From: an uncultured Pseudomonadales bacterium
GTDB taxonomy: Bacteria; Patescibacteriota; Microgenomatia; UBA1400; UBA12028
DNA length: 64,000 bases
Direction of reading: 5' to 3'
NCBI GenBank assembly: GCA_964635905.1
Contig: CAZWPK010000001.1
Location: 68,894 to 132,893, forward strand
Numbering within the stretch: position 1 is the stretch's first letter; each line of letters opens with the position of its first letter. Shown piece by piece: positions 14,177-61,124 of the stretch. Position numbers and translations under genes: made by a program. The notes beneath the pieces are model-generated. The model made no database searches, had not been told where the DNA came from, and saw only the letters and a list, made by a program, of their open reading frames with translations.

Positions 14177-14205
14177 TTGAGTACTGTCAAAAAACAGGCT
14201 ATAGT
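14177..14205 (+). promoter_or_regulatory. sigma70-like promoter candidate for the pilin genes
   Basis: TTGAGT (14177-14182), 17-nt spacer, TATAGT (14200-14205). ATG at 14219 gives a near-leaderless transcript. Confidence 0.4.
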
Positions 14206-14218
14206 AGGAAGATAGGCT

Positions 14219-14755
14219 ATGGCAGTGACACGTCAAAAATTCTTTCTCGATTCTGGTTTTACTCTTCTTGAGTTAATTGTTGTGATGGCAATTATTGGCA
14301 TCCTCGCAATGCTGGCGGTAGGCAACTTTCAATCCAGTCGAATCAAAGCTAACGATGCACGACGGAAGAGTGATTTAAAACAAATCCAGGCTGCTTTAGA
14401 ACAATATCATGCAGACTTTGGAAACTATCCTGGATCTGCCAGTAATGGAACTATCCTAGGTTGTGGAGCGGGGACGTCAACGTGCAGTTGGGGTGCTGCC
14501 TTTTCGATTACTGGAGGGGCAGTGTATATGAGTAAATTGCCCTCAGATCTGTCTCCTCAACGGTACTATTATGTGGGAAGCACAACAGGTCGATCTTACC
14601 AACTGTTTACCACCCTACAAAATACTCGAGATAATGACAATACCACCTTCACTGCGATTGCACCCAACTGTGCCTCCACGGGGACACTGGCGTGTACCTA
14701 TGGAGTATCCAGTTCAAATGTCACGATCGGTAGTGCTGTATCTACCATGCCATAA
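14219..14755 (+). CDS. type IV pilin / pseudopilin (prepilin-type N-terminal cleavage/methylation domain)
   Basis: N-terminus ...SGFTLLELIVVMAIIGILAMLAVGNFQ (class III signal, G|FTLLE). C-terminal Cys pairs (GCGAGTSTCSWG; CASTGTLACT). Confidence 0.85.
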   Translation: MAVTRQKFFLDSGFTLLELIVVMAIIGILAMLAVGNFQSSRIKANDARRKSDLKQIQAALEQYHADFGNYPGSASNGTILGCGAGTSTCSWGAAFSITGGAVYMSKLPSDLSPQRYYYVGSTTGRSYQLFTTLQNTRDNDNTTFTAIAPNCASTGTLACTYGVSSSNVTIGSAVSTMP

Positions 14756-14765
14756 AGGAAATGCT

Positions 14766-15263
14766 ATGAAGATCAAAGTGCTTTCGCGTTTTGTCCTCCA
14801 ACAGGGGTTTAGCTTAGTGGAATTGATTGTGGTTATTGCGATTATCGGAATCCTTACTGGACTAGTGGTAACCAATCTTTCTGGCGCTCGGGAGCGTGCC
14901 CGTGATGCACGACGAAAAGCAGATCTTCGGGCTATACGGGATGCACTACAGCTGTATCAAAATGATTATGGTGCATTTCCTGGAAATAATGCTTCTGGCC
15001 AAATCTTAGGTTGTGGAGCCTCCGGAACATCTGCCTGTGCCTTTGGCAGTGCATTTAGCGCAAATGGGAATGTCTATATGGGGCGTATTCCGCAGGATCC
15101 ACTCAATCGGAGTACCTATGTGTATCGCTATGCGGCAAATGCAACCGTCGATTATTTGTTGACAACAAACCTAGAAAACATCTCCGATCCGGATATCGCC
15201 AAATCACAAACGCGTTGTAACGTGTCGACAGGTGGAACACAATACGTGGTGTGTAACCAATAG
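14766..15263 (+). CDS. type IV pilin / pseudopilin paralog
   Basis: MKIKVLSRFVLQQGFSLVELIVVIAIIGILTGLVVTNL. Shares the YxxDxGxxPG...ILGCGA...C..G.AFS core with the upstream pilin. ATG 14766 is in frame with the longer track ORF. Confidence 0.85.
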   Translation: MKIKVLSRFVLQQGFSLVELIVVIAIIGILTGLVVTNLSGARERARDARRKADLRAIRDALQLYQNDYGAFPGNNASGQILGCGASGTSACAFGSAFSANGNVYMGRIPQDPLNRSTYVYRYAANATVDYLLTTNLENISDPDIAKSQTRCNVSTGGTQYVVCNQ

Positions 15264-15308
15264 GAATACTATTGACCCCAGTACACTTGAGACTATAATC
15301 AGATATCT

Positions 15309-15599
15309 ATGACAGAGACTACCCTTTATCGACAACTTACAATTGAACAGGTAACCGCAGCAATAGCTCGTAGTCTAGAGGATGCGCGATTCACTGACCA
15401 ACAACAGGTTTTAGTAATCCTACTTGCGCAGGCCCGCATGCTAGCACTAAACGCTCATGTAGGGATCTATAAAGTAGCAGAGGAGAAATCGCAAACTAGA
15501 AAAGTCCAAATCGCTTCCGCGTTGCAATATTTTGCCAGCCGAGCTGGAGAGTCTGATATCTTTGCCGCCTACGAAATCATTCCGGCACCACGGGACTAA
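15309..15599 (+). CDS. hypothetical protein (96 aa)
   Basis: ORF only. Position follows the pilin pair. Confidence 0.4.
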   Translation: MTETTLYRQLTIEQVTAAIARSLEDARFTDQQQVLVILLAQARMLALNAHVGIYKVAEEKSQTRKVQIASALQYFASRAGESDIFAAYEIIPAPRD

Positions 15600-15613
15600 T
15601 GATTGGTATGTAT

Positions 15614-15645
15614 TAAAACCGCCCCTGATGGAGCGGTTTCTTGCA
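15614..15645. terminator. hairpin between convergent genes (bidirectional terminator candidate)
   Basis: AAAACCGC-CCCTGATGGA-GCGGTTTC, with T-runs on both strands. It lies between the + gene ending 15599 and the - gene ending 15665. Confidence 0.35.
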
Positions 15646-15664
15646 TTCTATTTTTCAACTAACA

Positions 15665-17800
15665 CTATTCCTCCGGCACATCCGGAATCGCCGATGCGGA
15701 GGCAATCCCTGCGTCATCCGTCAAGCTGACGGGGGTGTTGACTTTTGGAGTGGCACTTTGGGTCGCCTCAATGGCTTGTGGTCGAGGCGTTGCTGTTGGC
15801 TTCGGGGTTGCAGAAGGCGTTGCTGTCTGTGTCGCCGCTGCGCTGGCGGCATCCCCCAGTTTCTTGCGTAAGGCATCTGCTTCTACTTTAATTTTTTCAT
15901 ATTGTGGATCATCTTGTTTGATCAGAGTGAGAGTCTTATCTAAGTAGGCAAGCTGTTGTGGTTCCTTTTTTACTTCTTTTGCAATATCAGCCAAGTTAAA
16001 GTACGCATTAGCGTAATCTGGTTTGAGTTGGACGGCCTGTTCTAATAATCGAGTAGCCTGGTCTAAGTTTTTCGCGCGGCGGAAAACACCGGCTAAATCA
16101 ACCCGGATTTTAGGATCCGATGGCGCTCGTTGAATGGCTTGAACATAGGCAGCAACTGTCCATTGGTCAGCTTGTTGTGCAGCTCCAATCAGTGCTTCAT
16201 AGATGGTTGCTAAGGTTTGCCAGTTGGCTACATTAGCAGGATCAAGCGCTACTGCAGCTTTTGCTTCATTAATCCCTTGTTGAATCAAGGTGAGCGCTGT
16301 CTTTCGATCATCCTCCGAAGGTTCTTTTTTTTGTGTTAATCCTTGGGCAATCAGTACGTTCGTGTTTGCAAAGGAACGGCGAAATTCCTCATGATGGGGA
16401 GCGATTTGAATTGCACGTCGTGTTAAATCGTACGCATCTTTTGCCTTATTTGCTCGAATGGCAGCTAATGATTGATTAAAAACAGTTTTGGCAATCGCTG
16501 AACGGATGTTAAAGAAAAGGGCAATTCCAGAAAGAGCGCACAAAACCACACAGACAAATCCCAAGACACCAAAAGCAACCTGACGTTCATCCTTACTTGT
16601 CTTATCCTTCGCGTTGACTAATGAGAATTCCGACTCCTCCACTCCCTCACTGGGAAGAGAATAGGAACGGGTATTTGTTGCCCATACCATTGCCAACAAG
16701 GTAAAGAGAGCAAGCAAAATGACATTGACGGGGAGAAGAAGGAAGAGAATGACGATCGTTAGGGTTGCGGCGGCAACAGGTAAGTCTTGTTTCTGTGTTT
16801 TTCTCAGTAACGCAAGAATTCCCAAGCCAATGAGAGCTAGTGCTGATAAACCGACAATTCCATGGGTCACCACAATATCGAGTGGGAAGCTACGAGCATT
16901 TGCGTATCGAATGAACCAGAACTCACCTTGGTTCATGGCAACAGGGCGCAAAATGCTAAAAGCATTGAGATAACTTTCAGTTCCAACCCCTAGGATTGCA
17001 GTACGTGGATTTTTAAGCACATCGAGCGCAATACTCCAACTTTGCTGAAAACTCATTAATACTGGACTTTGTGGTTGACCGGGAAGCAAGAGAGAGGCAT
17101 TGAGGAGCAATCCTAAGACCATGAGTCCACTCATCGCAGCGACAACCAATTTTTCTACAGTTTTCTTTGAAGTTACAAAAAATGTGAGTGTAGCAGCCAA
17201 TGCGACGATAAGCACCGTGGTATTGAGAAGAGGACCTCCATTGGGAAAGATTCCCGAGAGGGTGGAGTTGCCCGCACCAATCAAGGGGTTGAGGTTTATT
17301 CCAACCCGATCGAGCGCAGAAAGGATACTTATTATTACTCCACTGGCACCCAAGGCGTAGACAATTTTTGACGTTAATCGACTATGTAGCAACGCCGTTC
17401 CTAGGAAGTAAAGTAAAGCACAAGCAATATAAAACATTCCTGTCCCAGTCAGAGCTGCCATTTTATTTGGTGCGGAAACAACGATTGACATTAATGTCGA
17501 GAGGAGTAAGACAATAAATCCAAGGTTGAGTGGGGTGCGTGTGATCACTAACTTACGACGGAAAAAGGAAAGAACTGCAAAAAGAGTCAAACCAATCAAC
17601 GCTAGGGCAATGACAATCAGTCGTTTACCACCTTCAAAACTCTCCGGTAGAAAAGGGAGAAAAGCCAACGGAAGCAAGAATGTTAATCCGACAGCACTAA
17701 CGGCACTGAATTTGGAGAGAAGTGAGTTGCGCATAAATAAAACCCTTTGTAGAGCTAACAACCGGAGTATAAGGTTATCGAATATTCTTTCCTTCCACAA
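15665..17800 (-). CDS. O-antigen ligase-like (Wzy_C) polytopic membrane protein fused to C-terminal TPR repeats and a Pro/Thr-rich tail; candidate pilin/protein O-glycosylation ligase
   Basis: About 12 TM in the N-terminal 400 aa, with a loop motif RSFPLDIVVTHGIVGL resembling the ligase H-N-x-x-L...E-x-G-x-x-G block. The C-terminal 250 aa carry TPR-like helices (AYVQAIQRAP, DYANAYFNLADIAK). The tail is ATQTATPSATPKPTATPRPQ. Confidence 0.55.
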   Translation of the reverse strand: MWKERIFDNLILRLLALQRVLFMRNSLLSKFSAVSAVGLTFLLPLAFLPFLPESFEGGKRLIVIALALIGLTLFAVLSFFRRKLVITRTPLNLGFIVLLLSTLMSIVVSAPNKMAALTGTGMFYIACALLYFLGTALLHSRLTSKIVYALGASGVIISILSALDRVGINLNPLIGAGNSTLSGIFPNGGPLLNTTVLIVALAATLTFFVTSKKTVEKLVVAAMSGLMVLGLLLNASLLLPGQPQSPVLMSFQQSWSIALDVLKNPRTAILGVGTESYLNAFSILRPVAMNQGEFWFIRYANARSFPLDIVVTHGIVGLSALALIGLGILALLRKTQKQDLPVAAATLTIVILFLLLPVNVILLALFTLLAMVWATNTRSYSLPSEGVEESEFSLVNAKDKTSKDERQVAFGVLGFVCVVLCALSGIALFFNIRSAIAKTVFNQSLAAIRANKAKDAYDLTRRAIQIAPHHEEFRRSFANTNVLIAQGLTQKKEPSEDDRKTALTLIQQGINEAKAAVALDPANVANWQTLATIYEALIGAAQQADQWTVAAYVQAIQRAPSDPKIRVDLAGVFRRAKNLDQATRLLEQAVQLKPDYANAYFNLADIAKEVKKEPQQLAYLDKTLTLIKQDDPQYEKIKVEADALRKKLGDAASAAATQTATPSATPKPTATPRPQAIEATQSATPKVNTPVSLTDDAGIASASAIPDVPEE

Positions 17801-17839: not shown

Positions 17840-20800
17840 CTATGGAGAACCACTGGACGGGCCAAATTTAACCGCACTTCCAGCTTGCATGAGCTTAAGA
17901 ATTTGAGCTTGTGTAAGGGGGTAACTGTAGATTCGAAAGTCATCAATTTTCCCTGTAAACCACGAATCGGGACTATTATCTTCAATTTCTCCGATTGTGG
18001 CATTCTCGGCATCTGTTGCAATATCATCAAACCAATCATCAAGAGTTCCGGTGCCTGCTAACGTTGTGGAAGCCCAGTTAACAGGTTTGGCATTGATGTA
18101 GAGATCGACGCCAGTGCCATCTTGCACATAACAGATATGTTCCCAGGTCTGTCGTCGGACTACATCGTTTGCTGAAAGATAGGTAATCTGATTTGATGTA
18201 GTGCTATTTCGAAGACTTGCGTAAACTGCAGCAGAGTCAGCGCCGGTGTCTGAGATAAAAAAGTTATGTTTGACATTCGATCCAGTGGAGTCAGAATAGG
18301 AAAAGAGTGTTCCTTGTGTCCCTACGTCTGTCGGAACGTCATAATAAAACCAGGAACACAGGGAACCGATAGTTTGGGTATCCATGATGTCATCCGGCAG
18401 CGCAACATAATCATCGGTCCCATCAAAATTAAGGGAGGCGTTAATTTTCCCCGTTGCCCCATTTCCCCAGGCAGTTGAACTTGTGTTACACGTGCCAACA
18501 GCTGTTTGAGACCCTGAACTTGTTCCAAACCAGGTTCCATGGTTTGTGTTTCCACTAACATCATTCATTGCGGTTCCTTGACATTCGTCAAATTGGTAGA
18601 AAAGAAACGGACCACCTCGATTATAGTCATATAGTATCTGTGTTGGTGTTCGTGCGTAGTTATAGATTACCGTGTGATCGATCGTGCCATCAAATAAATT
18701 GGATCCGGCGGATGACTGGCTTCCCCAAGTCAACGTGTTGGCAACTCCCAATCCAAGCCCCATCGTCGCGGTTCCCGTTTGGAGGACTCCGTTAATATAC
18801 AAACTCGGTGTATTACTGGCTCCCACGAAAACTCCAACCAAGTGGTACCAAGTATTGAGGGCGATAGCAGGATTACTCGTCGAACAGCCAGCGGTGTAGT
18901 TGGTATTTGACTTTTCAATTTCAAAGATAACGCGCGAGCCACAGGTTCCATTCGAGCTACCTACTAACGCAAGATGGTAGCCATCCGTACCTCCACTTCC
19001 AATTTGATAGGTCAAAATACGATGATTGATCGCGGCAGAAATCGTATCCACTTTTATCCACGTTTCGACAGTAAAGGATCCTGACCCAACTAGACCAAAG
19101 ATGGAGTTTGCCATCTGCATGACGTCATTATTGCCGTCAAACTGTAGACCGTTTCCAATTTTCCCGCGTAACCATCCCGTGTTTTTGCGATCCTGACCAA
19201 AGTTAGCATTCAGGGTAGCAGTATATCCGTTTCCGGAGGTATCAGGTGCGGACGTTCCACTCTTCTCGTCTAATTTCCATTCCCCTAAGGGAGGCCATCC
19301 CGCTCCATCCGCGAGTTGTCCAGATTCGCTGGCAGCAGTCACACCCAAATTCAAACTTGATCCGGCATTAAAATCCATGGCAATTTCTTGATCAGACATG
19401 ACTGTTTGGTAAATCTTAAACTCATCAATATACCCCTGATACCCATAGGTAGCCGAGGAAAGACCTTGGTATCCTCCAACATACGGTGTCCCGGTGTTGA
19501 CTTCAGCAGCACTATCAGAATAGGTGTCGGTATCAACATGTCTGCCGTTGTAATAGGTCTTGATAACTTTATTGACCCGATCATGAGAGATGGCGATATG
19601 CTGCCAGCTCCCCACCACAATTGGTGCCCCTAGCGTCACTTGAATTGCTGAACTCCCATTGGCGTATTGATACTGAAAGAGGGTTCCACTGACGTTAAAG
19701 TAGATCCAGTGAAACCCTACTGATGTGCTTTGTGCTCCGCGGTTATACAGTGTCGGCAGGGTAGAATTAGTCAAGGAAGTGGGATTAATCCACATACTAA
19801 AAGTGATGCCATCTTTGCCATCGATTGCAGGGCTGGATGTACCAGTGATAATGTCTCCAGAACCATCCATAGACAAGGATCCGTTTACTTTCCCATTCTT
19901 TTTAAAACTTGCGCCGGTAACTGTACCATTGTCCGTTCTACTTCCTGTATGGTGAGCAATAGCACCGGAGGATTCATCCATCGCCCAATACAAACTTGGA
20001 GAGAGGTTTTGGACGGTAGTCCGACTTCCATTGAAGTCTTGGTTGACTAAGCGATACGTTCGCTCGTAGTTGTAGATTATTATCTCATCTACGGAGCCAG
20101 TAAAATCATTCGAGGTGCCATCAGCATCAATTCCGATATACAGTGGATCGGAGTTGGTTAGCGTATTGGTTGCCGTCAACGAAGAATCGGTGGCAATCAG
20201 TAATCCATCGATATAGAGTTTTAGACTTGTAGCACCTAATTTCACACACTCTACATGATGCCAAGTATTGTCATCGTAGGTTGCCGCCGTGGACGTCGCA
20301 GAGTCGGTCGGTGACCAAGTCGAGTCATAATCTAACCCACACGTAATATCCCCATCCGATTCCATAATGACCTTGTAGCCAGCCTCGTTAAATTTGGACA
20401 GAATGACTTCTTGGGCAGAAGCGGTTTCATGTTTGAAAAAGAGGCTAATCGACATGTCCGCATCATCGGCAAAATCAAAATCAGCATCATCGGCACGTGT
20501 TAAATGCTGATTGGATCCAGCAAAGGCAATTCCTGATCCATATTTTCCGGTCTTCCAAGTCGGGGTATTCGTTAAGGTGAGCTCATTATCTCGTGTGGAA
20601 GTATCAAGCGCCGTACTCCCGCTATTATCGTCAAGATTCCAGTACCCAACAGGACTGGGGGGTGTGGCGTACAATTGCCGAATTTCTGCAGGACTTAACG
20701 CGCGATTATAGATACGTGGTTCATCGATTAGACCATCGTAATAGTCCGATCCCCCGAAGGAATAATGCGCAGCTCCCACGAGAAAGGTTTCACCGGTGTC

Positions 20801-22501
20801 CCCAATTGCGCTCGGAGCTCCAGTGGAAGTTGCTGCTAGTTCACCGTTGACAAAGACATTGGCAATCCGGGTTCGGGGGTCATAGGTTCCCGCTACATGA
20901 TACCAAGTTCCTGTCACTAAATTGCTGGTAGCTGTAGTTACCAAAAAGGTGTCTGTATCGATAAATAGGCGGACTTCATCGCCATATTGCGTCAGAAGAT
21001 AGCTTAAGTTCGTATCGTCCCACTTTCCGATGATATTAAAGTGTGTGGCTGCAGTAGTGGACTCCGGTTTGATCCATGCAGATAGGCTCAGGGCTCCGGT
21101 GACCGACAGAGTTGCATTGTCAGCAATGTACAAATAATTGAAGCTACCACGCTCGTTATCAATGCCATTTCCATATTTGCCATTGGCGTAGGCAGTGCTG
21201 TTGGCATTGGTTAACGTAAATCCATTTCCCGAAGCATCTGCGGCATTTCCGCTACTTTCATCCAGTTTCCAATAGCCAATTAAGCCATTGCTTAACGTAT
21301 CTTGGGGTTGTCCACCCAGCTTACCGGCGAACTGATTATAATCCGATTTAACCTGCGTTGCGCTGCGACCGTACGTATACAATTTAACTTCATCAATGCT
21401 TCCTAAAAACTTCTCTACACCATCGGCTCCTGCCGTTACGGCTCCAATCGTTAAGGCATAGGTATCATCCGACATGGCTTCAGTCACGCTACCTTCGGCT
21501 CGCTGCAGCCCGTTGACAAAAATACGTTCTGTTGTGCTATCGCGGCTGTACACCACATGGGTCCAGCGACTGGTTACGATATTTGCGGTGGTGGTTCGAA
21601 ACTCCTGCCAGCCATTCCCATTTTTGTAACTCACAGCAATTTCGTCTTGATCTAGATATAAGCTGTAGGCACGTGCATCCCAACTACTTGGAGTGCCTTT
21701 ATGCACAATGCCTTGCCAGTCAATGGTCGTACTGTTGGGGAAAATCCACGCTTCAATCGTCAGCGTATTTCCTAGATCCAACGTGGGATCATCGGTTGCC
21801 AGTACATAATCATTGGTACCATCAAAGCGTAAACACTTATCGACGACGCACTGACTATTGGTAACCCAGACAGGGTCATCGGTAGAGATGGAGGTCGAAC
21901 TTCCAAAGGTCGCATCATTGTCATTTGCGGTCGAATCTTGTGTCACTTGTCCGGTTCCTTCGTTAAATCCCCAGTACGCGACAGGACCTGGGGTAGATTC
22001 TTCGGACTGGAGGGCGAGAGAACCGAGGCCGGAGGCAGCGGAGGAGAAGTCAGCGGATTCAAATCCATTGGCAATGGTGGGGTTGCCATAATACATATAG
22101 TAGTTGGATTCCCCAGCTGGGAGGGAATCAAAGAGGACATGGATGTTGGCCGTGGCATCACAATCTACGACATAGAATTTGAGTAACTGTCCATTTTCTT
22201 TGGTGAAGCGGAGATCACCACAATCAGCTTGGAACTTGGTAGAGTCTGTGGCATCAAAGGAGGGGACAGAGACATAGACAGAGGATTCTAAGGAGGAATG
22301 GGAGGGGATGTTGACTCGTTTTCGATAGGCCCAATTGGCATCAAACCAGGCTGCTTGACTTAAGGGAGCTTGACGTAAGGAGAAGAATACCAAGGGGATG
22401 AGAATGAGTACAACAGGAAGAGTGATCGCCAAAATCAGGAGTCGAGAAAAACTCCGGGAACGTAATTTCCGGTGACCACTGCGAATGCGCTTCACTCTCA
22501 T
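17840..22501 (-). CDS. 1553-aa N-terminally anchored surface protein: DUF2341-like N-terminal module plus multiple LamG/concanavalin-A-like lectin domains
   Basis: N-terminal TM LILAITLPVVLILIPLVFF, then WAYRKRVNIP...CGDLRF...YYV (DUF2341-like). Repeated Laminin_G_3-like blocks with FDGTNDYV / FDGTDDYVALPD / LQFDGNNDVM / W..L..W.H. C-terminus ends FGPSSGSP. Confidence 0.8.
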   Translation of the reverse strand: MRVKRIRSGHRKLRSRSFSRLLILAITLPVVLILIPLVFFSLRQAPLSQAAWFDANWAYRKRVNIPSHSSLESSVYVSVPSFDATDSTKFQADCGDLRFTKENGQLLKFYVVDCDATANIHVLFDSLPAGESNYYMYYGNPTIANGFESADFSSAASGLGSLALQSEESTPGPVAYWGFNEGTGQVTQDSTANDNDATFGSSTSISTDDPVWVTNSQCVVDKCLRFDGTNDYVLATDDPTLDLGNTLTIEAWIFPNSTTIDWQGIVHKGTPSSWDARAYSLYLDQDEIAVSYKNGNGWQEFRTTTANIVTSRWTHVVYSRDSTTERIFVNGLQRAEGSVTEAMSDDTYALTIGAVTAGADGVEKFLGSIDEVKLYTYGRSATQVKSDYNQFAGKLGGQPQDTLSNGLIGYWKLDESSGNAADASGNGFTLTNANSTAYANGKYGNGIDNERGSFNYLYIADNATLSVTGALSLSAWIKPESTTAATHFNIIGKWDDTNLSYLLTQYGDEVRLFIDTDTFLVTTATSNLVTGTWYHVAGTYDPRTRIANVFVNGELAATSTGAPSAIGDTGETFLVGAAHYSFGGSDYYDGLIDEPRIYNRALSPAEIRQLYATPPSPVGYWNLDDNSGSTALDTSTRDNELTLTNTPTWKTGKYGSGIAFAGSNQHLTRADDADFDFADDADMSISLFFKHETASAQEVILSKFNEAGYKVIMESDGDITCGLDYDSTWSPTDSATSTAATYDDNTWHHVECVKLGATSLKLYIDGLLIATDSSLTATNTLTNSDPLYIGIDADGTSNDFTGSVDEIIIYNYERTYRLVNQDFNGSRTTVQNLSPSLYWAMDESSGAIAHHTGSRTDNGTVTGASFKKNGKVNGSLSMDGSGDIITGTSSPAIDGKDGITFSMWINPTSLTNSTLPTLYNRGAQSTSVGFHWIYFNVSGTLFQYQYANGSSAIQVTLGAPIVVGSWQHIAISHDRVNKVIKTYYNGRHVDTDTYSDSAAEVNTGTPYVGGYQGLSSATYGYQGYIDEFKIYQTVMSDQEIAMDFNAGSSLNLGVTAASESGQLADGAGWPPLGEWKLDEKSGTSAPDTSGNGYTATLNANFGQDRKNTGWLRGKIGNGLQFDGNNDVMQMANSIFGLVGSGSFTVETWIKVDTISAAINHRILTYQIGSGGTDGYHLALVGSSNGTCGSRVIFEIEKSNTNYTAGCSTSNPAIALNTWYHLVGVFVGASNTPSLYINGVLQTGTATMGLGLGVANTLTWGSQSSAGSNLFDGTIDHTVIYNYARTPTQILYDYNRGGPFLFYQFDECQGTAMNDVSGNTNHGTWFGTSSGSQTAVGTCNTSSTAWGNGATGKINASLNFDGTDDYVALPDDIMDTQTIGSLCSWFYYDVPTDVGTQGTLFSYSDSTGSNVKHNFFISDTGADSAAVYASLRNSTTSNQITYLSANDVVRRQTWEHICYVQDGTGVDLYINAKPVNWASTTLAGTGTLDDWFDDIATDAENATIGEIEDNSPDSWFTGKIDDFRIYSYPLTQAQILKLMQAGSAVKFGPSSGSP
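21971..22433. repeat. about 463-bp perfect direct repeat, copy 1 (5' coding end of LamG gene 1)
   Basis: Nucleotide-identical to 27035..27497 by direct comparison. It encodes the shared TM anchor and DUF2341-like module. Confidence 0.8.
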
Positions 22502-22645: not shown

Positions 22646-25600
22646 CTACGGTGAACCCGAAGACGGTCCAAAGAACAGAGAGGCGTTGTTGTTATAGAGT
22701 TTGCGGGCGTGATAGATGGATAAACGATAGTTAAAGATTTGTAGTGCATCAATTTGACCGGTGAAATTATTACTACCAACCGTTGCTGCATACGTGCCAA
22801 TGGTTTTGCTACGTCCGGTTGTAGTGATGGTATTTCCGTTAAAACCAGCGCTTCCCGAGACAGTTTTACCATCTAAGAACATGTAGACCTCATGACTGCT
22901 CCCATTGTAACTGAGGGTACACACAAAGTGGTGCCAAGCACCGTCGTTGACCAGCGGGGAAGGAGAAACGGTCCCACTTCCGGAGGCATTGCCGACATTA
23001 CAAGCAACGCGATTGGTGGTGTTTACATAGATGTTAAATCGGTGGGTTGTAGTAGTCCCCACATTGGAAAAAATGTATCCAATGCCACCGGAATAATCGG
23101 CCGAAGTTTTGAACCAGACGCTTACTGATTGTTCTCCGACGTCGGGTGAAAAGATGCTGGTATCGGCAATCGAAACATAGTCATCACTCCCATCGAAGTT
23201 TAAGCTTCCATTAAATTTCCCAGTCGATCCATTTCCCCAGGCAGTGGAAGCGGTAGTGCAGGTACCAGCGGTGGTTTGGGAGCCGCTAGCCCCAACGGTA
23301 AGGGTGCCGTTGTTTCCTTTCCCAGAAGAGTCGTTTAAGGTGTTTCCTTGACATTCATCCAGTTTCCAATGAGCGATGGGAGCTCCCCGGCTAAAGTCAT
23401 AGGCAATTTGAGCATCGGTGCGGGCATAGTTATACAACTTGAATTCATCCACCGACCCATTCAAGAAAGAGTCGGGACTATTGTCTTGGATGTTGCCTAT
23501 CGTAACCGCTTCCACCGAGGCTGCACCATCATCAAACCAGTCATTTAAGCTCCCAGCTCCGCCATCGGTGGCGGTGACCGCAATCTTTACGCCGTTGACA
23601 AACATCTCGACTCCCAAGCCGCTCCCAGCTTGGCGCAGACATAGATGTGTCCAGGTAAGACGGGGAATGGCATTGTCGGCAGAGGTGTAATCGTACGCAT
23701 CATTGGCGGTGCCATCTTGTCGAATGTGGACGCGTAAACGGGCGATATCACTCCCCGTATCAGAGATATAGATCGAATGCTTGGTCACCGTTCCTCCGGT
23801 GTCGGCAACGGAGAAAAAGCTGCCCTGCGTCCCATCATCAGTAGGCTTATTGTAATAGACCCAACCACACACAGTGCCTACGGTGTGACTGTCCGTACTA
23901 TTGTCCGGAAGGGCAATAAAATCGTCGGTACCATCTAACCGCACCCCTGTCCCAATTTTCCCTTGCGTCCACACGGGTCCACTAGTCAGCGTCCCGGTGT
24001 TTCCCGTGCTACTGGTATCAACAGCAGTAGTGCCAGTATTGTCATCGAATTGTAAATAGGAAGCTGGGGGATTCCCGCTCCCATCCACGGATTGGGCACT
24101 CTCGGCGGTGGAGGTGCTATTGATATTTAAGGCTGCGTTGGCATTCGCATCCACACGAATTTCTTCGGAGCTAAGCTCACCGCTGTAGATTTTAAACTCG
24201 TCAATTCTTCCATCAAAATTTGCGGTGGTTGTTCCGCCAACCAGGAAATTTGCCGTATCTGTAATTGCAGGGGAACCCGATCCATTCGTGGAGGTTCCTT
24301 TCCGTATTCCATTTACCCACAGACTAATCTCATCGTCGCTATCATCTGTATATGTTAGGGCAATATGGTTCCAGGTGCCGGTAGTGATCGGAGAACTTAC
24401 ATTAAGCGTTGCGTCGCTTCCGGTTAAATCTAGACTACATTCAATATCCAGATTACTTCCTGACTGGGAATCTACCCGACACCAGGTAGTGGTGCCTTTA
24501 TAAAAAATTTGACCCACATCATTTTCGCCATCAGAATCGGCATTAATCCAAGAAGAGATCGTGACACCTTGTGTTAATGTCACATCAAAATCAATCGCAT
24601 CACCATTGGTGACTGTTAGGACGTCATCACTACCATCAAAGTCTAAACAACCATTGAGTTTACAGTCGGTTTTGGTTTTCCAAGTGGTGCCGGTTAAAGT
24701 CTCTGTAAACGCGATACTAGAGCGGGAGTTAATGGTGGTGCCTTGGACTTCATCCAATGCCCAATAGGCAATCGGAGAGCCAACCGGGGAACCGGCCAGT
24801 GGATGTCCCCCATTCATATCTTCAATAATTTGTTCACTGGTTCGCTGGTAGTTATATACACGAAGATCATCCATTTTCCCCGGGAACTGGGTTGAAACAC
24901 CACTGTTAAGAGCTCCTATCAAGATTGCAGCGTTGCTACTTATTCGTCCCGCGATCGCGCAGGTTTTTACCAGGACGCCATTTAAATAGATACGAACGTT
25001 CACTCCGGTTAGTGTATCTTCATAGGTGACGGCCGCATGACTCCAAGTATTGGCGGAGAGAATTCCTGTGGACGTATTGCAGCTAGTTAAGACCGATTGG
25101 GTTTGGTTGCGTACATTTCCAAACAGTCCGCCTCCAGCAAGCTGTGCCAGTCCAAACCCATATGTGGACCCATTTTCTCCTCCGGCAATCACTCCAGCAG
25201 GTGTGATTGTAGAAGGATTGATCCAGGCCATGACGCTGGCACTCCCGTTGGTGATGGTATATGGTGTGCCAACCGATCGTATATAGTCATTCACCCCATC
25301 AAAAAATCCAGCTTTGCCAAATTTCCCCTCGGCTCCACCCATGGGTCCAGTCGAATTTGGACACGCAATTGCTGAATAGGCATTTCCCGATTTTTCCTGT
25401 ACTGTGGCGGTTGAACAGTCATTGGTCCAACTCCCTTCATCCATGGGCCAGTACCCTATAGGTCCTGTAGCCCAGTTGGCAAGTTGTTCGATTGCAAGAG
25501 GTGAGAGGGCGCGGTTATAAATGCGAGCTTCATCGATAATTCCTTTGTACGGGTGGGTTGTGGGTGCACCTCCCAAGTACACGACTTCGGTTCCGGTATA

Positions 25601-27568
25601 TAAAGTGCCGGTATAGGTCGTGCTACTTTCCAATTTTCCGTCAATAAAAATAGACGCTCGAGTCCCATCCATGGTCGCGGCAACATGATGCCAAATTCCA
25701 TCATTGACTAGGGTTGTACCTGCGACTGCCACTCCATCGTTTACTCCTCCAACTTTGGAAAATAACACGATGGAGCCATCGGTTCCGTACGCACCTCCTG
25801 ATGTAAGACCGAGCCAATAATTGCGTGTGGTATTGCTATCGTTATCTTTGGATATAAACGTCTGTAAACTTCCTGAGGACGTCGTCTTCACCCAGGCGGC
25901 TAGAGTGAACTGTTGCAGTTGGAGGGAAGCAGCATTGGCAACGCTGATGTAGTCATTGGTTCCATCCATCCACACCGCGTTGCCAAAGCGCGCGGTGCCA
26001 GTTTTGTGGACAACTTGATAGTTACACGAGTTTAAGGTGGCAGCGAATGCATCCGTGGTAAAGGTTTTAGTACTCCCCACATAGTCGTTAATAACACGGA
26101 TGGTGTTAATCGTATTACCGCCACAGGTTGCGGTGATTTGCAGATACATTCCAACATACATGTCGTCAACGGACGACAGTGTTCCATCGGTATCAACTAA
26201 CACCGTTGTAGATCCACCGGAAGCATCGGCCGTCCCACCTTCATTTGTGCCGGTGATGGTGCCAGTATTCCCGATGCCCGAATCATCAACCACCGACGTT
26301 CCTGCCGTCAGTAGTTCATCCATCTTCCAGTAGCCAACGAGACCTTCCGAGAGAAAGGTGGTGGGGTCGTTTCCTCCTAGTTGAGCGGCCCGATTGCTAG
26401 CCATATCCATTTTTATCTGGGCGGGGGTACGCGCGTACCCATACATTTTGACCTCATCGATATATCCTTTATACAAATAGGTCGAACTATGGTTAAATCG
26501 ACCGATGCTTAAGGTTCCGGCGGTCGCGGTGTCGCGTGTTCCCGAAGTACTCGAGCTTGTGGCTACAGCTACACCATCAATGTACAGGGTCATTGTCGTG
26601 CCGGAAACCGTACATTCTAGATGATGCCATTTACTATCGCGATAATTCGTCGTTACGATGGCCTCTAGGTATGTGTTTCCTGAATTGGCTTGGTACACTT
26701 TACAGTGCAGAGTTTCATCGGTATGAAAAAAGATGGCATAGAGCCAGTCGTTGCTAGTTCCATAATTGACCAACACGTGACTGGACCCGGCGGGTCCAGG
26801 ATTTTTGAACCAAAGGGAAGTGGAAAAGTTTCCCGTAAACTCGAGCGCATTAATATCTCCCACGTTGACATAATCTTCCACTGCATCAAAGTATAAACAA
26901 CTTTCACTCACACAGCGATCTTTCGATTGCCAGACAGGGTCGGTGGAGTTAGCAGATGTCGAGTTGCCTAATGTGCCATCATAGTTTTTTGTCGTACTAT
27001 CTTCGATAAACTGTCCCTGGGCTTCATCCATCTTCCAGTACGCGACAGGACCTGGGGTAGATTCTTCGGACTGGAGGGCGAGAGAACCGAGGCCGGAGGC
27101 AGCGGAGGAGAAGTCAGCGGATTCAAATCCATTGGCAATGGTGGGGTTGCCATAATACATATAGTAGTTGGATTCCCCAGCTGGGAGGGAATCAAAGAGG
27201 ACATGGATGTTGGCCGTGGCATCACAATCTACGACATAGAATTTGAGTAACTGTCCATTTTCTTTGGTGAAGCGGAGATCACCACAATCAGCTTGGAACT
27301 TGGTAGAGTCTGTGGCATCAAAGGAGGGGACAGAGACATAGACAGAGGATTCTAAGGAGGAATGGGAGGGGATGTTGACTCGTTTTCGATAGGCCCAATT
27401 GGCATCAAACCAGGCTGCTTGACTTAAGGGAGCTTGACGTAAGGAGAAGAATACCAAGGGGATGAGAATGAGTACAACAGGAAGAGTGATCGCCAAAACA
27501 TAGAGCCGACGCAACGAACGAGATGCTGGTATGCGTTTTTGATGTCGTTTCATTAGTTGATAATCCAC
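22646..27568 (-). CDS. 1640-aa paralog of the upstream LamG/DUF2341 surface protein
   Basis: N-terminal 165 aa are identical to the 17840..22501 product apart from the first ~25 residues. Multiple LamG blocks (FDAVEDYV, MDGTNDYISV, FDGVNDYI, FDGSDDVLTV, LDGTDDFIALPD, FDGSDDYVSI). Same FGPSSGSP C-terminus. Start overlaps the giant gene's stop by 16 nt. Confidence 0.8.
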   Translation of the reverse strand: MDYQLMKRHQKRIPASRSLRRLYVLAITLPVVLILIPLVFFSLRQAPLSQAAWFDANWAYRKRVNIPSHSSLESSVYVSVPSFDATDSTKFQADCGDLRFTKENGQLLKFYVVDCDATANIHVLFDSLPAGESNYYMYYGNPTIANGFESADFSSAASGLGSLALQSEESTPGPVAYWKMDEAQGQFIEDSTTKNYDGTLGNSTSANSTDPVWQSKDRCVSESCLYFDAVEDYVNVGDINALEFTGNFSTSLWFKNPGPAGSSHVLVNYGTSNDWLYAIFFHTDETLHCKVYQANSGNTYLEAIVTTNYRDSKWHHLECTVSGTTMTLYIDGVAVATSSSTSGTRDTATAGTLSIGRFNHSSTYLYKGYIDEVKMYGYARTPAQIKMDMASNRAAQLGGNDPTTFLSEGLVGYWKMDELLTAGTSVVDDSGIGNTGTITGTNEGGTADASGGSTTVLVDTDGTLSSVDDMYVGMYLQITATCGGNTINTIRVINDYVGSTKTFTTDAFAATLNSCNYQVVHKTGTARFGNAVWMDGTNDYISVANAASLQLQQFTLAAWVKTTSSGSLQTFISKDNDSNTTRNYWLGLTSGGAYGTDGSIVLFSKVGGVNDGVAVAGTTLVNDGIWHHVAATMDGTRASIFIDGKLESSTTYTGTLYTGTEVVYLGGAPTTHPYKGIIDEARIYNRALSPLAIEQLANWATGPIGYWPMDEGSWTNDCSTATVQEKSGNAYSAIACPNSTGPMGGAEGKFGKAGFFDGVNDYIRSVGTPYTITNGSASVMAWINPSTITPAGVIAGGENGSTYGFGLAQLAGGGLFGNVRNQTQSVLTSCNTSTGILSANTWSHAAVTYEDTLTGVNVRIYLNGVLVKTCAIAGRISSNAAILIGALNSGVSTQFPGKMDDLRVYNYQRTSEQIIEDMNGGHPLAGSPVGSPIAYWALDEVQGTTINSRSSIAFTETLTGTTWKTKTDCKLNGCLDFDGSDDVLTVTNGDAIDFDVTLTQGVTISSWINADSDGENDVGQIFYKGTTTWCRVDSQSGSNLDIECSLDLTGSDATLNVSSPITTGTWNHIALTYTDDSDDEISLWVNGIRKGTSTNGSGSPAITDTANFLVGGTTTANFDGRIDEFKIYSGELSSEEIRVDANANAALNINSTSTAESAQSVDGSGNPPASYLQFDDNTGTTAVDTSSTGNTGTLTSGPVWTQGKIGTGVRLDGTDDFIALPDNSTDSHTVGTVCGWVYYNKPTDDGTQGSFFSVADTGGTVTKHSIYISDTGSDIARLRVHIRQDGTANDAYDYTSADNAIPRLTWTHLCLRQAGSGLGVEMFVNGVKIAVTATDGGAGSLNDWFDDGAASVEAVTIGNIQDNSPDSFLNGSVDEFKLYNYARTDAQIAYDFSRGAPIAHWKLDECQGNTLNDSSGKGNNGTLTVGASGSQTTAGTCTTASTAWGNGSTGKFNGSLNFDGSDDYVSIADTSIFSPDVGEQSVSVWFKTSADYSGGIGYIFSNVGTTTTHRFNIYVNTTNRVACNVGNASGSGTVSPSPLVNDGAWHHFVCTLSYNGSSHEVYMFLDGKTVSGSAGFNGNTITTTGRSKTIGTYAATVGSNNFTGQIDALQIFNYRLSIYHARKLYNNNASLFFGPSSGSP
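27035..27497. repeat. about 463-bp perfect direct repeat, copy 2 (5' coding end of LamG gene 2)
   Basis: Identical to 21971..22433. The two copies are 5064 bp apart. Confidence 0.8.
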
Positions 27569-30500
27569 CAGTTAAACTCCACATCCTTACTCAAGGCTTG
27601 GTCCAGCGTGACCGTAAACCCACCCACGGTAGTAGTTGTCTCGTCTTGACCTTGTTTGCCAGAGACATACAAGACTTGGTTATTCGTACTGCTCGTTGGT
27701 GTGATATAGATTAACGAGTCCGAGGACACTTGAGTGGTATAAATAATGACATCGGTTTGTCCTTGCTTCAAGACGGCTTTTCCAGTACTTGCGTTTGTTG
27801 CCGATCCACTCGCTGTGGTTGGGGCGCTCAAGGTCAGTTTAGCAAAAGTTGCAGATCCACTGGCATCAATAGAGGCAACTTCTGTCATCCCGCTCTTGAT
27901 GGCAAGTTTGCCACTTTCACTGGAAAGAACCCCACTCTCACTAGCCAGTTGAATCCCTAAAATCTTGGATTCCGGAGCAATCAAGGTTGTTGACAGTTGA
28001 CCCTGGACGGTCACGTCTTGGGTAAAGAGAGCGTCGGTTGTCACCACTAATCCACCTTCGCGATTAAGGGTGAGAGCCCCAGCTAACAGATCTAAGGTTC
28101 CAGTCCCGGTAGCTTGGACATAAAGGGTCGACTCGGTGTCGGAAATAAGATTAATCGAGTTTTTGTCAAATGCCATACTGCTTCCTACAATGAGGGCCGT
28201 ATTGATGTGAGCATTGGTGATACTGGCCGTGCCTTGGACGTTTAAGTATTCGTTAGCAAAAACCGCATCGGCCGAAATCAGATCCGCAGAACTGCTAGCC
28301 TCTGTATTCCAGTCGGCACTGTCGGAAAGCAGATCGGAGACAATCAATTTAATTTCTGGATTCAAACTCGCAAGCAATTCATCCTTTTGTTGTCCGGAGA
28401 TTGTGGAATCCTGAGCCAACAGGGATGAAATGGAAGCTTCTGCGGTAATTAGCCGATTTGCCATTTCGGTGATATTTTTAGCTGTCAAGTTTCCAGAGAT
28501 GGTGGCCTCGGCAGCCGTCAGAATTCCAGAGATGGAGGCTTCTCGAGTATCCACGCGCTCACTCTGGGAAACTAAGTATCCATTTTGTGCAATCGTATCG
28601 ATGACTAAGTTATGCAGACTCTTTCCCCCAACGGTTAACGTGTCTGTTTGAATCGACGAAGATTGAATAGTTCCAGCAATCAACGTGGTAAAGACATTAC
28701 TCGTAGACTCCACAATTTCGGAGAGGGAAGCGGCAATCGAACGAATCAGCGTTTTATTGGCTTCTGCTTCTGGATTACTGGCAAGTTGTGCTAATCCATC
28801 AGCAACCATTTGGCCTTGGTTATCCAGTGCCATCGTGGGATCAGCAAACGATGGATTCACATACACTAAGACGTCACGATCTCCAGAGCCTGGGGTCCAA
28901 GCTTCCAAGGCATATCCGATAATATAGCCTGGTTTATTGGCTTTGGTAGCGCGTCCCGATTGTGTCGAAGGTCGCAGCGGATCTCCGGGGCGAATGGAGC
29001 CTTCTTGATCGTCTAGTTTAACATCGAGCTGTCCAGTGAATCCAACCAAAGCATAACTGGCAGCAATTTGTTCATCGGTTTTCCCTTTAGGGTAGTTTCC
29101 AACAAAACCAGCGCGATTGGAGGTGATACCTAAGAGTTTGTCTCCGGACTGGAATCGACGCACTTTTCCAGTTTCATAGTTAATACCCACGACTTCATTA
29201 GTGGGCAGGTCGCCTTCCTTTTCAAAGTATTCTGCAAGGTCGGCACCCGTAGTTTGGAAGGCAGCTTCACCATAGACTGTTCCATCGGCTCGGACGCGGA
29301 AGACTGAAGCAGCATCAGAACGTGTTAAGGAATTGTACGCGGTAATTAAGTTGTAGGCAGTGGTAGATGATCCAGCCCCTTCAACAGTCAATACACCTGG
29401 ATCACCTTGGGCGCCAGCGGTTCCTACGTTGGTCATGGTGATCGCTCCCGTGTTTCCGTTACGCACCAATAATGAGATGGTATCCAGATCATTGGTGGTG
29501 ATAAATCCACCCGCCACATTAAGATCAGTGGCGGTTGTGCCGGTTACCGATGTGGAGGTGTTACTAACCACAAAGTTCCCCGTACCTGTTAGGTCGGCGA
29601 CGATATCGCCTCCATTGTAGGTGCGTAGAGTCAAGTCGTTACTCTCATAATTTTCTCCGGCTTCAATGTAGAGCGGAGCCTTGGACTTGATAGAAGATGT
29701 CGTTTGATTGGTAAACTGCAAATCATATGCCATTGAGACATCCCCAGGGGCATTAAAGGCGACTGGTAAGGCGGCAGTGATAGCAGTCTCAGAGACAGAG
29801 AAGAGAGATGAGGCCGTGTCAGCAACCGAGAACAAGTTGCCACTGGTACTGCCATTGGTGCCAATGTTGATTCGGAAGAGATCTCCAGTGGCAGACGTTG
29901 CCGATCCCGGACTCCAATCGAAGTTGGCTAAGAAACCGGAAGTAAAGGCTGTAGAGGTAGAGGCGAGGGAGAGACCGGTACCGGAGGAGAGGGCATTAAC
30001 GCTGAGCGCTAATCCAGTCCCTGTAGCCGTTGCAGACTGAATGAGCATACCGGAGGTACCAGCGGTGACTAATTCCAATCGATCATCAGTGGCTTCATCA
30101 TAGCCCAAGGTCCAATCTTGATCCAAGCCGAAAGCAATTCCATTGTCGTCACCCAAGAACAACTGCTCCCATTCCGCAGCTGCAGATCCTAGTGAATTTC
30201 CTTCGGCGGCGCCAGCTGTCAAGTTGGTGGCATTCAGGGCTAGTTCGGCAACAGAATTGATGTAGAAGGTAGCGGTATCTGCCGTGGCTTCTCCTAAATC
30301 GATGTTTTCACCACCTGCAGTGGTAATGTCACCACCGCCTACACTCAAATCTCCAGAGACTGCTGTGGTTGGTGCGGTAATGGTAACAGTTCCATCCGTA
30401 TCGTTATCAATTTTTTCTCCATTCGCAAAGGTGATATCTCCACCAACCCCTGAAAGTGTTAATCCTGTGGTCCCGGAAATGGTAGTATTTCCAGACAGCG

Positions 30501-56898: not shown

Positions 56899-57213
56899 TT
56901 ATTCTTGTTTGCGAAGTTTGCGCAACTCCGATTGTGTATGCTGATGGACAATCGAAATGATGTAAGTCTGGTAGGGAAGGCGACGTTGATTTGCCACGGT
57001 CTGGATGTCTGCCAGATCTGCTTCACTGATACGGAGTGAGATCATTTTATTTTTCCGCTGTTTTGCAGAGTTTGCAGCAATTTTTTGATACCGTTTTTTT
57101 TCTTCCTCGAAGTTGGGAATTGTTGTTAAGGAACCGCTTTCAAACGCATCTTCGATTTCTTGCTCTTGTGGATCTAAGATAATGGTGTGCTCGTCAGGAT
57201 TATAGTTTTTCAT
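56899..57213 (-). CDS. ribbon-helix-helix protein, BrnA/CopG-like antitoxin-type
   Basis: C-terminus ISLRISEADLADIQTVANQRRLPYQTYIISIVHQ matches the BrnA-type RHH (I.LRl.eelle.lk..A...G.pYQtli...l..). Start ATG at 57213 has GAAGAGGT 6 nt upstream. The longer track ORF is an in-frame extension. Confidence 0.55.
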   Translation of the reverse strand: MKNYNPDEHTIILDPQEQEIEDAFESGSLTTIPNFEEEKKRYQKIAANSAKQRKNKMISLRISEADLADIQTVANQRRLPYQTYIISIVHQHTQSELRKLRKQE

Positions 57214-57533
57214 AATTACCTCTTCGATAAATAATATTTTGTTGCTTTTCGACTTGGGTAGCACGTCTTTATAAATATTTTTTCTGCATCCTCTACGAAG
57301 GGGACAAAGAAAACATAGGCCTCTATTTCAATTTTTCTCTTCATTCCACCGAATCGTCTTCATACATTCTCAATCCACCCATAGTGTAATACGGCGTATA
57401 TACAATGTCAATTCATCGCATTACAGTATTGAGTTGCTTTCTCGACCGATAAGACCTATAATAACAATCTACTCTCACCCCATACTACATGGGGAATGAG
57501 AGTCTTGTCCTTTGATTTCTAGCGGAGGCAAAA

Positions 57534-61113: not shown

Positions 61114-61124
61114 CGACACAACCT

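Follow-up and report, generated by a model that had tools for sequence, protein, structure and literature searches.

A Microgenomates membrane-TPR protein family with a WaaL/PglL-like fold, encoded beside pilins and giant surface proteins: a possible glycosylation or maturation factor for surface appendages

The locus

The stretch of DNA analysed here (the window) comprises 64,000 nucleotides of contig CAZWPK010000001.1 (positions 68,894 to 132,893), from an assembly titled uncultured Pseudomonadales bacterium and placed by GTDB in the Patescibacteriota (Microgenomatia). Its subject is a minus-strand gene for a polytopic membrane protein with C-terminal tetratricopeptide repeats (TPRs), hereafter the membrane-TPR protein, which converges on two type IV pilin genes. 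A first-pass annotation, made from sequence alone, had proposed this pairing as a candidate system of pilin O-glycosylation by an O-antigen-ligase-like enzyme, and all of the open reading frames (ORFs) that it described were recovered where it had placed them. The features of the convergent region are as follows.

14219..14755, plus strand: pilin 1 ('type B'), 178 aa; ORF with Pfam and NCBIfam matches
14693..14725, plus strand: C-terminal motif of pilin 1, C159-T-Y-G-V-S-S-S-N-V-T169, from conservation in type-B pilins
14766..15263, plus strand: pilin 2 ('type A'), 165 aa; paralogue of pilin 1; C-terminal end ...SDPDIAKSQTRCNVSTGGTQYVVCNQ
15272..15299, plus strand: promoter-like site TTGACC-16-TATAAT, 11/12 to consensus, preceding the 96-aa ORF
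15309..15599, plus strand: 96-aa ORF, soluble and helical by sequence
15616..15641, both strands: hairpin with U-rich tracts on both strands, between the convergent units
15665..17734, minus strand: membrane-TPR protein ('F'), 689 aa plus stop
15668..15832, minus strand: Ala/Thr/Pro/Ser-rich C-terminal tail, residues 635-689; predicted local distance difference test (pLDDT) <50
15833..16504, minus strand: TPR domain, residues 411-634; Pfam TPR_17/19/11/14, helical repeats in the AlphaFold2 (AF2) model
16661..17734, minus strand: WaaL/PglL-fold membrane domain, residues 1-358; AF2 model, Foldseek and profile matches
16850..16990, minus strand: conserved extracytoplasmic loop and signature helix, residues 249-295; conservation in 166 family members

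The two pilins are paralogous (49% identity, E 1e-31), and each has a short basic leader, Gly at -1, Phe at +1, Glu at +5 and a hydrophobic N-terminal helix. The class III signals read ...DSG/FTLLELIVV in pilin 1 (G13/F14, with E18) and ...QQG/FSLVELIVV in pilin 2. Both proteins match Pfam N_methyl (E 5e-7 and 1e-6) and T2SSG as well as NCBIfam IV_pilin_GFxxxE and GspG, with TIGR02532 scores that exceed its cut-off. Four cysteines are arranged as two pairs in both (C82/C89 and C151/C159 in pilin 1), in agreement with the first-pass description. Ser/Thr-rich C-termini had been noted for both pilins; the tail of pilin 1 is of this kind, and that of pilin 2 is not clearly so.

The 96-aa ORF that follows the pilins, also described previously, has no match in Pfam or NCBIfam. 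A relative was detected in one close genome only (locus L001, 64% identity over 92 aa), and it diverges faster than its neighbours between the window and that locus (64% vs 87% for the pilins). The hairpin beyond it has fold energies of -16.7 kcal/mol on the plus strand (z -3.7) and -17.7 kcal/mol on the minus strand (z -5.3), and is likely to be a bidirectional terminator.

The open frame of the membrane-TPR gene extends to a TTG at 17800 (711 aa, 15665-17800), as first reported. Database gene calls and the family alignment place the start at Met 17734, and the protein is therefore probably 689 aa rather than 711 aa long; residue numbering follows the 689-aa form. When residues 1-358 are modelled alone with AF2 (pLDDT 80, predicted template-modelling score 0.81), the membrane core has ten transmembrane helices, with one more ahead of the TPR domain, and not the twelve originally counted. 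A large outside loop is modelled at residues 216-282, ahead of the signature helix, and the conserved stretch of loop and helix (residues 249-295) includes G249xG251, F259, R263, N268, W273, R281 (in the canonical His column) and G292xxG295. The loop motif singled out at first, SFPLDIVVTHGIVGL, is present, and is aligned to the signature helix of Wzy_C and PglL proteins. The TPR domain, with Pfam matches that span residues 519-634, is predicted from the model to lie outside the membrane. The Pro/Thr-rich tail recognised in the first pass corresponds to residues 635-689, which are predicted to be disordered, with Pro-rich positions kept across the family.

Relationship to the WaaL/PglL superfamily

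A Foldseek search with the full-length model returned TPR proteins only (OGT, SPY, APC), which is uninformative; the membrane domain was then modelled by itself. Searched against the PDB, this domain has as its top match the O-antigen ligase WaaL (7tpg_B; E 3e-3, probability 1.00, template-modelling (TM) scores 0.56/0.51). All other matches have a probability of at most 0.16 and a TM score of at most 0.23 (the next, 0.14 and 0.15), and on the modelled structure WaaL is the only credible fold match. The model shows a WaaL-type polytopic fold, including a large extracytoplasmic loop before the signature helix. A PMT/ArnT-type GT-C glycosyltransferase with TPRs (TMTC-like) was considered and rejected, as it has no Pfam support and WaaL is the sole credible fold match.

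Profile searches point to the same superfamily. A profile of 27 membrane domains (25 family members and two canonical Wzy_C proteins, P0041 and P0042) matches one PDB sequence, 9rmk_A, annotated 'Oligosaccharyltransferase', with E 4.8e-6. Because this profile held the two canonical proteins, a hidden Markov model (HMM) was rebuilt from 166 family members only; it still matches 9rmk_A with E 9.4e-7 and 31 bits, of which 17.5 bits are composition bias. The numbering of 9rmk_A agrees with every Neisseria meningitidis PglL residue named in PMC3643930, and the similarity to a solved O-oligosaccharyltransferase (O-OTase) is significant at the profile level. A nine-sequence profile (A2) gave no PDB match. 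Wzy_C alone among Pfam families recurs in the 27 aligned domains, matched at E<=1 by seven, two of which are P0041 and P0042; neither these domains nor the membrane-TPR protein match Pfam PglL_A or PglL_B.

In the resulting alignments, G249 and G251 (100% and 99% conserved) fall on PglL G316 and G318, which are conserved in PglLs and not in WaaL (PMC3643930). The alignment near PglL Q178/N180 and H400-P406 (H400, E404, P406) varies between profile runs. The canonical members and PglL hold an extra segment of about two transmembrane helices that is absent from the membrane-TPR family, and the twelve helices of the Wzy_C superfamily are here ten core helices and one before the TPR domain. Other matches were discarded: that of the membrane domain to NCBIfam ccoS is due to chance, and weak NCBIfam matches to PilW, MamA, FlcA and PrsT, far under the cut-offs, reflect generic TPR similarity and were not used. 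Taken together, the sequence profiles and the model support the placement of the membrane-TPR protein, highly diverged as it is, in the WaaL/PglL (Wzy_C, GT-C-B) superfamily.

Family distribution and conserved residues

An exhaustive profile search of cluster representatives (clusters at 50% identity) found 14,368 at E<=1e-3, with 1,285 of them at E<=1e-30. The representatives are mostly 650-720 aa long, which implies the same membrane and TPR architecture, and the few source names are 'TPR protein' or 'hypothetical protein'. The 80 loci that were retrieved are labelled as Microgenomates or Patescibacteria wherever the label is informative, and include Woese-, Ames-, Roizman-, Pace-, Shapiro-, Beckwith-, Collier- and Chisholmbacteria; the closest match to the protein from the window is from a Woesebacteria genome (51% identity). 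Many loci titled 'uncultured Pseudomonadales' or 'uncultured Gammaproteobacteria' (e.g. L007, L012, L013, L016, L019-L021 and L024) show typical Microgenomates gene content and synteny, and the organism labels of such third-party-annotation records of metagenome-assembled genomes appear unreliable.

Despite a mean pairwise identity of 28% in the membrane domain, several positions are invariant or nearly so across the 166 members, namely P22, K37 (100% K/R), G166, G249xG251, F259, K/R263 (99%), N268, W273, G292xxG295 and P335. K37, K/R263, N268, W273 and the GxG motif are each at least 99% conserved. Judged by the positive-inside rule on the modelled helices, all of the invariant residues would face outwards. 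Conservation within the protein is highest in the TPR domain, with a mean pairwise identity of 0.39 vs 0.28 for the membrane domain.

Linkage to pilin genes

The density of pilin-motif ORFs was counted by distance from the membrane-TPR gene in 80 loci. It is 2.09 per 10 kb within 1 kb, 0.93 at 1-2 kb, 0.24 at 2-3 kb and 0.07-0.09 at 3-10 kb, an enrichment of about 25-30-fold within 1 kb over 3-10 kb. Adjacent pilins, a trait of many PglL-type O-OTases but not of all, are found in the window and in 27-31 of 81 loci, with a same-cluster pilin in 31 of 81 by homology clustering. The first four distant loci (L002-L005) contain no pilin genes, and the impression of a merely local linkage that they gave was overturned by the 80 loci.

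Three pilin types recur, A (pilin 2), B (pilin 1) and C (Cys-rich, not in the window), and they occur in three arrangements: three divergent pilins ('I> A< B< C< F>'), one Cys-rich pilin in the co-directional sense ('C> F>') and the convergent form of the window ('F> A< B<'). Pilin 1 orthologues adjoin the membrane-TPR gene in other Microgenomates loci, and type-A orthologues with the C-terminal pattern of pilin 2 lie beside it in L007-L009, L021, L022, L035, L051, L063 and L082. In the reciprocal direction, a metagenome search with a type-B pilin profile gave 17 loci with full-length matches, six of which have the membrane-TPR gene within 3 kb, including all four of the closest pilin 1 relatives; one further locus, in which the pilin is truncated, also carries it. 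In none of 62 generic pilin loci (446 kb) was the gene within this distance. By density, arrangement and reciprocal search, the linkage to pilins is real and more than one coincidence; the interpretation given in the first-pass annotation is partly supported.

Type C pilins are 205-280 aa long with 12-20 cysteines (L010 9181-9879, L021 9190-9867, L022 5366-6079, L036 9222-9911, L057 7337-8128 and others). They are the commonest pilins directly abutting the membrane-TPR gene, and are absent from the window and from its close relative L001.

The C-terminal motif of pilin 1 is shared by type-B pilins of the window and of L008, L009, L010, L013, L022, L030, L044, L051 and L063. Across 12 type-B pilins, whose identity is otherwise 43-53%, its C, Y, S, N and T are each kept in 80% or more, and the consensus, C-x-Y-G-V-S-S-x-N-x-T, sits directly after the last disulfide. 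From this conservation pattern, C159-T169 may be regarded as a candidate acceptor or recognition site. The motif contains an N-x-[S/T] sequon, which is the N-glycosylation sequon of eukaryotic/archaeal type, in 11 of the 12 pilins. No STT3/PglB/AglB-like gene was seen in the window, and the N-x-[S/T] motif could equally be explained as structural.

Giant surface proteins and the wider neighbourhood

The membrane-TPR gene is the last of a minus-strand run, after three genes for giant surface proteins.

17840..22501, minus strand: 1553-aa surface protein with signal anchor, DUF2341 and six LamG (Laminin_G_3) domains
22646..27568, minus strand: 1640-aa surface protein with DUF2341 and six LamG domains
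27553..42510, minus strand: 4985-aa giant, the 'I' family member of the window, with a MerR-type helix-turn-helix (HTH) domain and Peptidase_G2

The 1553-aa gene is directly upstream, 105 bp before Met 17734 and 39 bp before the TTG at 17800. The 4985-aa protein has its MerR-type HTH at residues 14-69 and a Peptidase_G2 intramolecular-chaperone (IMC) autocleavage domain at residues 4384-4472. Family 'I' is defined by a common C-terminal region containing the Peptidase_G2 IMC domain; the C-terminal 82 aa of the 4985-aa protein cluster with 'I' proteins of 49 of 81 loci, and the 548-aa 'I' protein of L060 matches Peptidase_G2 with E 1.9e-9. In those 49 loci the 'I' relatives, as ORFs of 170-2487 aa, are the immediate upstream neighbours of the membrane-TPR gene.

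Upstream partners were counted in the 56 loci with at least 3 kb upstream, where a large protein was taken to be an 'I' protein, a LamG giant or any protein of at least 800 aa. A large same-strand upstream protein is present in 44, pilins in 19, both in 18 and neither in 11, and the median gap from the membrane-TPR gene to the same-strand upstream gene is 62 bp. The more constant partner of this gene is the large upstream surface protein and not the pilins, which argues against a simple pilin O-OTase.

Several features of the giants stand out. It is odd for a giant, fibre-like protein of the cell surface to carry a domain of cytoplasmic DNA-binding type, and in the 1430-aa 'I' relative of L005 the MerR HTH is replaced by N-terminal Phage_int_SAM domains. 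The 1553-aa LamG protein matches NCBIfam TafC, a haloarchaeal Tat-fimbria subunit, with E 1.4e-61 and 209 bits, under the 410-bit cut-off, which probably reflects common LamG-type domains rather than orthology. In 14 loci, mostly titled Amesbacteria, an IS200-like Y1 transposase (Y1_Tnp; L014 9202-9897) lies directly upstream of the membrane-TPR gene, with only short 'I'-family ORFs (170-400 aa) beyond it; this arrangement may mark decay or rearrangement of the giant gene.

Other window ORFs that were scanned encode an ABC transporter, Obg, diacylglycerol kinase, a histidine kinase, ATP synthase, iPGM, leucyl-tRNA synthetase (LeuRS), ComEA/ComEC and a VirD4-like ATPase; none of them is a gene of the type IV pilus machinery. 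The VirD4/TraG-type coupling ATPase (TrwB_AAD_bind; 54676-56880, minus strand) lies beside a CopG-like small gene (56899-57264, minus strand), and the ComEA-like (HHH_3) and ComEC (Competence) genes (60520-62441, plus strand) follow further on; these genes have functions in DNA transfer and uptake.

Points against a glycan-transfer role

A number of results weigh against the assignment of glycan transfer to the membrane-TPR protein, and the most serious concerns the active site. The functional core of WaaL and PglL consists of two arginines, which bind the diphosphate, and one histidine, which activates the acceptor (R215/R288/H338 in Escherichia coli WaaL, R224/R298/H349 in PglL and R191/R265/H313 in 7tpg; PMC3643930, PMC10920833); the histidine position is Asp or Glu in related polymerases and SEDS proteins (PMC10920833). 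This Arg/Arg/His set is not found in the family. PglL R224 falls in the two-helix segment that the family is without, the R298 column is Phe, Tyr or Leu, and the His column holds S in 95, R in 41, T in seven, Y in five, A in four, G in four and H in only three of 166 members (R281 in the protein of the window). Nor does the membrane domain contain any invariant His, Asp or Glu as a possible base across the 166 members. The family thus keeps the fold and the signature helix, with conserved residues on the outer face that differ from the canonical set.

The remaining points concern the annotation and the neighbourhood. Neither the whole membrane-TPR protein nor residues 1-450 match Pfam Wzy_C (PF04932), even at E<=10, and NCBIfam gives no Wzy_C match either; more than half of the HMM score against 9rmk_A, as noted above, is compositional. 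The Pfam search that the first-pass annotation had asked for thus returned TPR matches and no Wzy_C, which for the single sequence is literally the outcome that it had named as refuting; its O-antigen-ligase-like core, which these databases do not recover, is upheld at the level of remote homology by the WaaL fold match and the 9rmk_A profile matches. No glycosyltransferase, nucleotide-sugar, flippase or phosphoglycosyl-transferase gene occurs among the ORFs scanned in the 64-kb window, and no glycan-synthesis gene recurs beside the membrane-TPR gene in related loci. No pilin lies within 4 kb in 37 of 56 well-flanked loci, so that about two thirds are without an adjacent pilin. Finally, downstream synteny is conserved (Obg, LysM-M23 and Rho, with LeuRS also around the gene), so that inheritance of gene order accounts for part of the neighbourhood.

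Interpretation

The membrane-TPR family is typical of Microgenomates and is encoded by the last gene of a cell-surface module, which contains one or more giant exported proteins (of IMC-fibre type and LamG type) and, in roughly one genome in three, two or three pilin genes as a cassette that directly adjoins the gene. The best explanation at present, held with slightly more doubt than belief, is that this divergent PglL-like protein acts as a factor in the glycosylation or maturation of the surface-appendage module, pilins included. The membrane domain would bind a polyprenyl-diphosphate-linked glycan at the outer face through the invariant K37, K/R263, N268, W273 and GxG loop, the TPR domain would hold the exported protein substrate, and the glycan would be transferred to Ser/Thr of module proteins. 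Substrates in the window might be the three giants, pilin 1 (at its C-terminal S-S-x-N-x-T motif) and perhaps pilin 2. The analyses show the fold, remote homology, topology, family size, gene linkage and conserved residues; the donor, the transfer of glycan, the acceptor sites and the role of the TPR domain are inferred. The activity that calls for the fewest assumptions is transfer of glycan from a polyprenyl-diphosphate donor, in view of the fold, the PglL-like GxG motif and two precedents (pilin-adjacent PglL homologues and WsfB), and the attachment of sugar by the membrane-TPR protein is plausible. The loss of the canonical Arg/Arg/His set keeps confidence limited, and leaves room for scaffold, non-protein-acceptor and pilin-specific roles.

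It is possible, if unlikely, that the protein is a pseudo-enzyme, a non-catalytic WaaL-fold anchor with an outside TPR domain that docks, organises or retains appendages such as pili and giant fibres at the membrane or wall. All three canonical catalytic residues have been lost with no invariant acid or His left, the TPR domain is conserved above the membrane domain, and glycan genes are missing nearby, as a scaffold would lead one to expect. What speaks against it is the strict invariance of K37, K/R263, N268, W273 and GxG in the outer loop, which argues for a conserved ligand-binding or active site.

A dedicated pilin O-OTase of the TfpO/PilO type, modifying only the adjacent pilins, is distinctly less probable. 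The sharp enrichment of pilins beside the gene, the recovery of the gene by reciprocal search from pilin 1, the conserved Ser-rich motif directly after the last disulfide in type-B pilins and the frequent pilin adjacency of PglL homologues (21 of 31; PMC3643930) would all fit such an enzyme. It is rated lower because in most loci the gene has no pilin beside it, yet conservation of the family and of its TPR domain is high. Moreover, of the 19 pilin-bearing loci 18 also have giants upstream, the gene in the window runs co-directionally with the giants and is cut off from the pilins by the terminator-like hairpin, and the canonical catalytic residues are missing for this enzyme too.

Little more can be said for a ligase or polymerase with a non-protein acceptor, which would join an undecaprenyl-diphosphate (Und-PP)-linked surface glycopolymer to the cell wall or to lipid, with neighbours that share only an envelope theme. 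Among solved structures WaaL gives the best fold match, the gene is widespread and has conserved housekeeping synteny around it, and a capsule-to-peptidoglycan role has been proposed for O-antigen-ligase family members (GT121) in Gram-positive bacteria (PMC10920833). However, related polymerases and ligases keep Arg with His, Asp or Glu (PMC10920833), which the membrane-TPR family does not; its GxG motif is PglL-like and not WaaL-like, and a protein acceptor is more in keeping with the TPR domain and with the close linkage to exported proteins.

A more far-reaching proposal, which likewise seems improbable, is that the family forms a mechanistically new branch of the PglL/WaaL fold, with Arg/Arg/His replaced by a Lys/Lys-Arg/Asn/Trp site that is fused to the conserved extracellular TPR domain, and serves as dedicated maturation factor of an appendage specific to the candidate phyla radiation (CPR) and made of a three-pilin cassette and giant fibre/lectin proteins. 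Its role might then be to modify the pilin S-S-x-N-x-T motif or to couple the appendage to the envelope, by chemistry that differs from that of known O-OTases. That adjacency is inherited gene order alone, with no functional link to pilins or giants, is very doubtful: the conserved synteny with Obg, Rho, LeuRS and LysM-M23 is set against pilins that abut the gene in three different positions and orientations, a pilin density that drops about 25-30-fold within 3 kb, and a pairing recovered by reciprocal search in unrelated metagenomes.

This is not a new kind of system but a large unannotated PglL/WaaL variant in the CPR, with unusual conserved-site chemistry. Type IV pili are central to host attachment and DNA uptake in CPR/Patescibacteria, and to our knowledge almost nothing has been reported on the post-translational modification of their surface proteins. 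No literature was found that combines CPR/Patescibacteria with O-antigen ligases and pili, nor was the recurrent partnership of giant fibre/lectin proteins, pilin cassette and membrane-TPR gene found there. The family defined here (1285 clusters) is missed by standard Wzy_C profiles and is tied to pilin cassettes and adhesin-like giants. If the favoured glycosylation role is correct, Microgenomates would gain their first proposed protein-glycosylation system, and an O-OTase active in the absence of the canonical His and Arg would bear on the GT-C-B mechanism and on glyco-engineering; if the protein is instead a pseudo-enzyme, a glycan-ligase fold would have been re-used as an appendage scaffold.

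Comparison with known systems

WaaL uses lipid A-core as its acceptor, and synthesis of this molecule is not expected in CPR bacteria. The membrane-TPR protein resembles Cupriavidus metallidurans WaaL (7tpg) in its fold and in the large outer loop before the signature helix. It differs from WaaL in the number of transmembrane helices (12 in WaaL) and in not conserving Arg-191, Arg-265 and His-313, which bind Und-PP and activate the acceptor (PMC10920833). A TPR domain is absent from WaaL.

TfpO/PilO of Pseudomonas aeruginosa 1244 and Acinetobacter TfpO are pilin-specific O-OTases that modify the C-terminal residue itself. As in those systems, the gene adjoins a pilin gene, and the candidate acceptor follows the last disulfide loop, close to the C-terminus of the pilin. 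In contrast, the conserved Ser motif of type-B pilins is 9-14 residues from the end, the membrane-TPR gene is convergent and not co-transcribed with the pilins, giant non-pilin proteins are its commoner partners, and the catalytic residues are not conserved.

PglL, the general O-OTase of Neisseria meningitidis, belongs to the same superfamily by profile search (9rmk_A). Beyond the shared glycines, W233 of the membrane-TPR protein is aligned with PglL W302 and the signature helix (...L..L...G..G) with PglL 353-362, and a C-terminal TPR motif has been reported in PglL (PMC2943079). R224, R298 and H349 have no equivalent in the membrane-TPR family, which has two fewer transmembrane helices, a monoderm-type CPR host and a long, highly conserved TPR domain.

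WsfB of Paenibacillus alvei, an O-OTase for the surface-layer (S-layer) protein, combines Wzy_C with a C-terminal TPR domain (PMC2943079). It is encoded inside an S-layer glycan biosynthesis cluster, a setting that differs from that of the membrane-TPR gene, as no such genes were seen among the window ORFs scanned. In its described architecture (PMC2943079), WsfB is nevertheless similar to the membrane-TPR protein: a Wzy_C-type membrane domain is followed by a C-terminal TPR domain, in a host without an outer membrane and with an abundant surface protein as acceptor.

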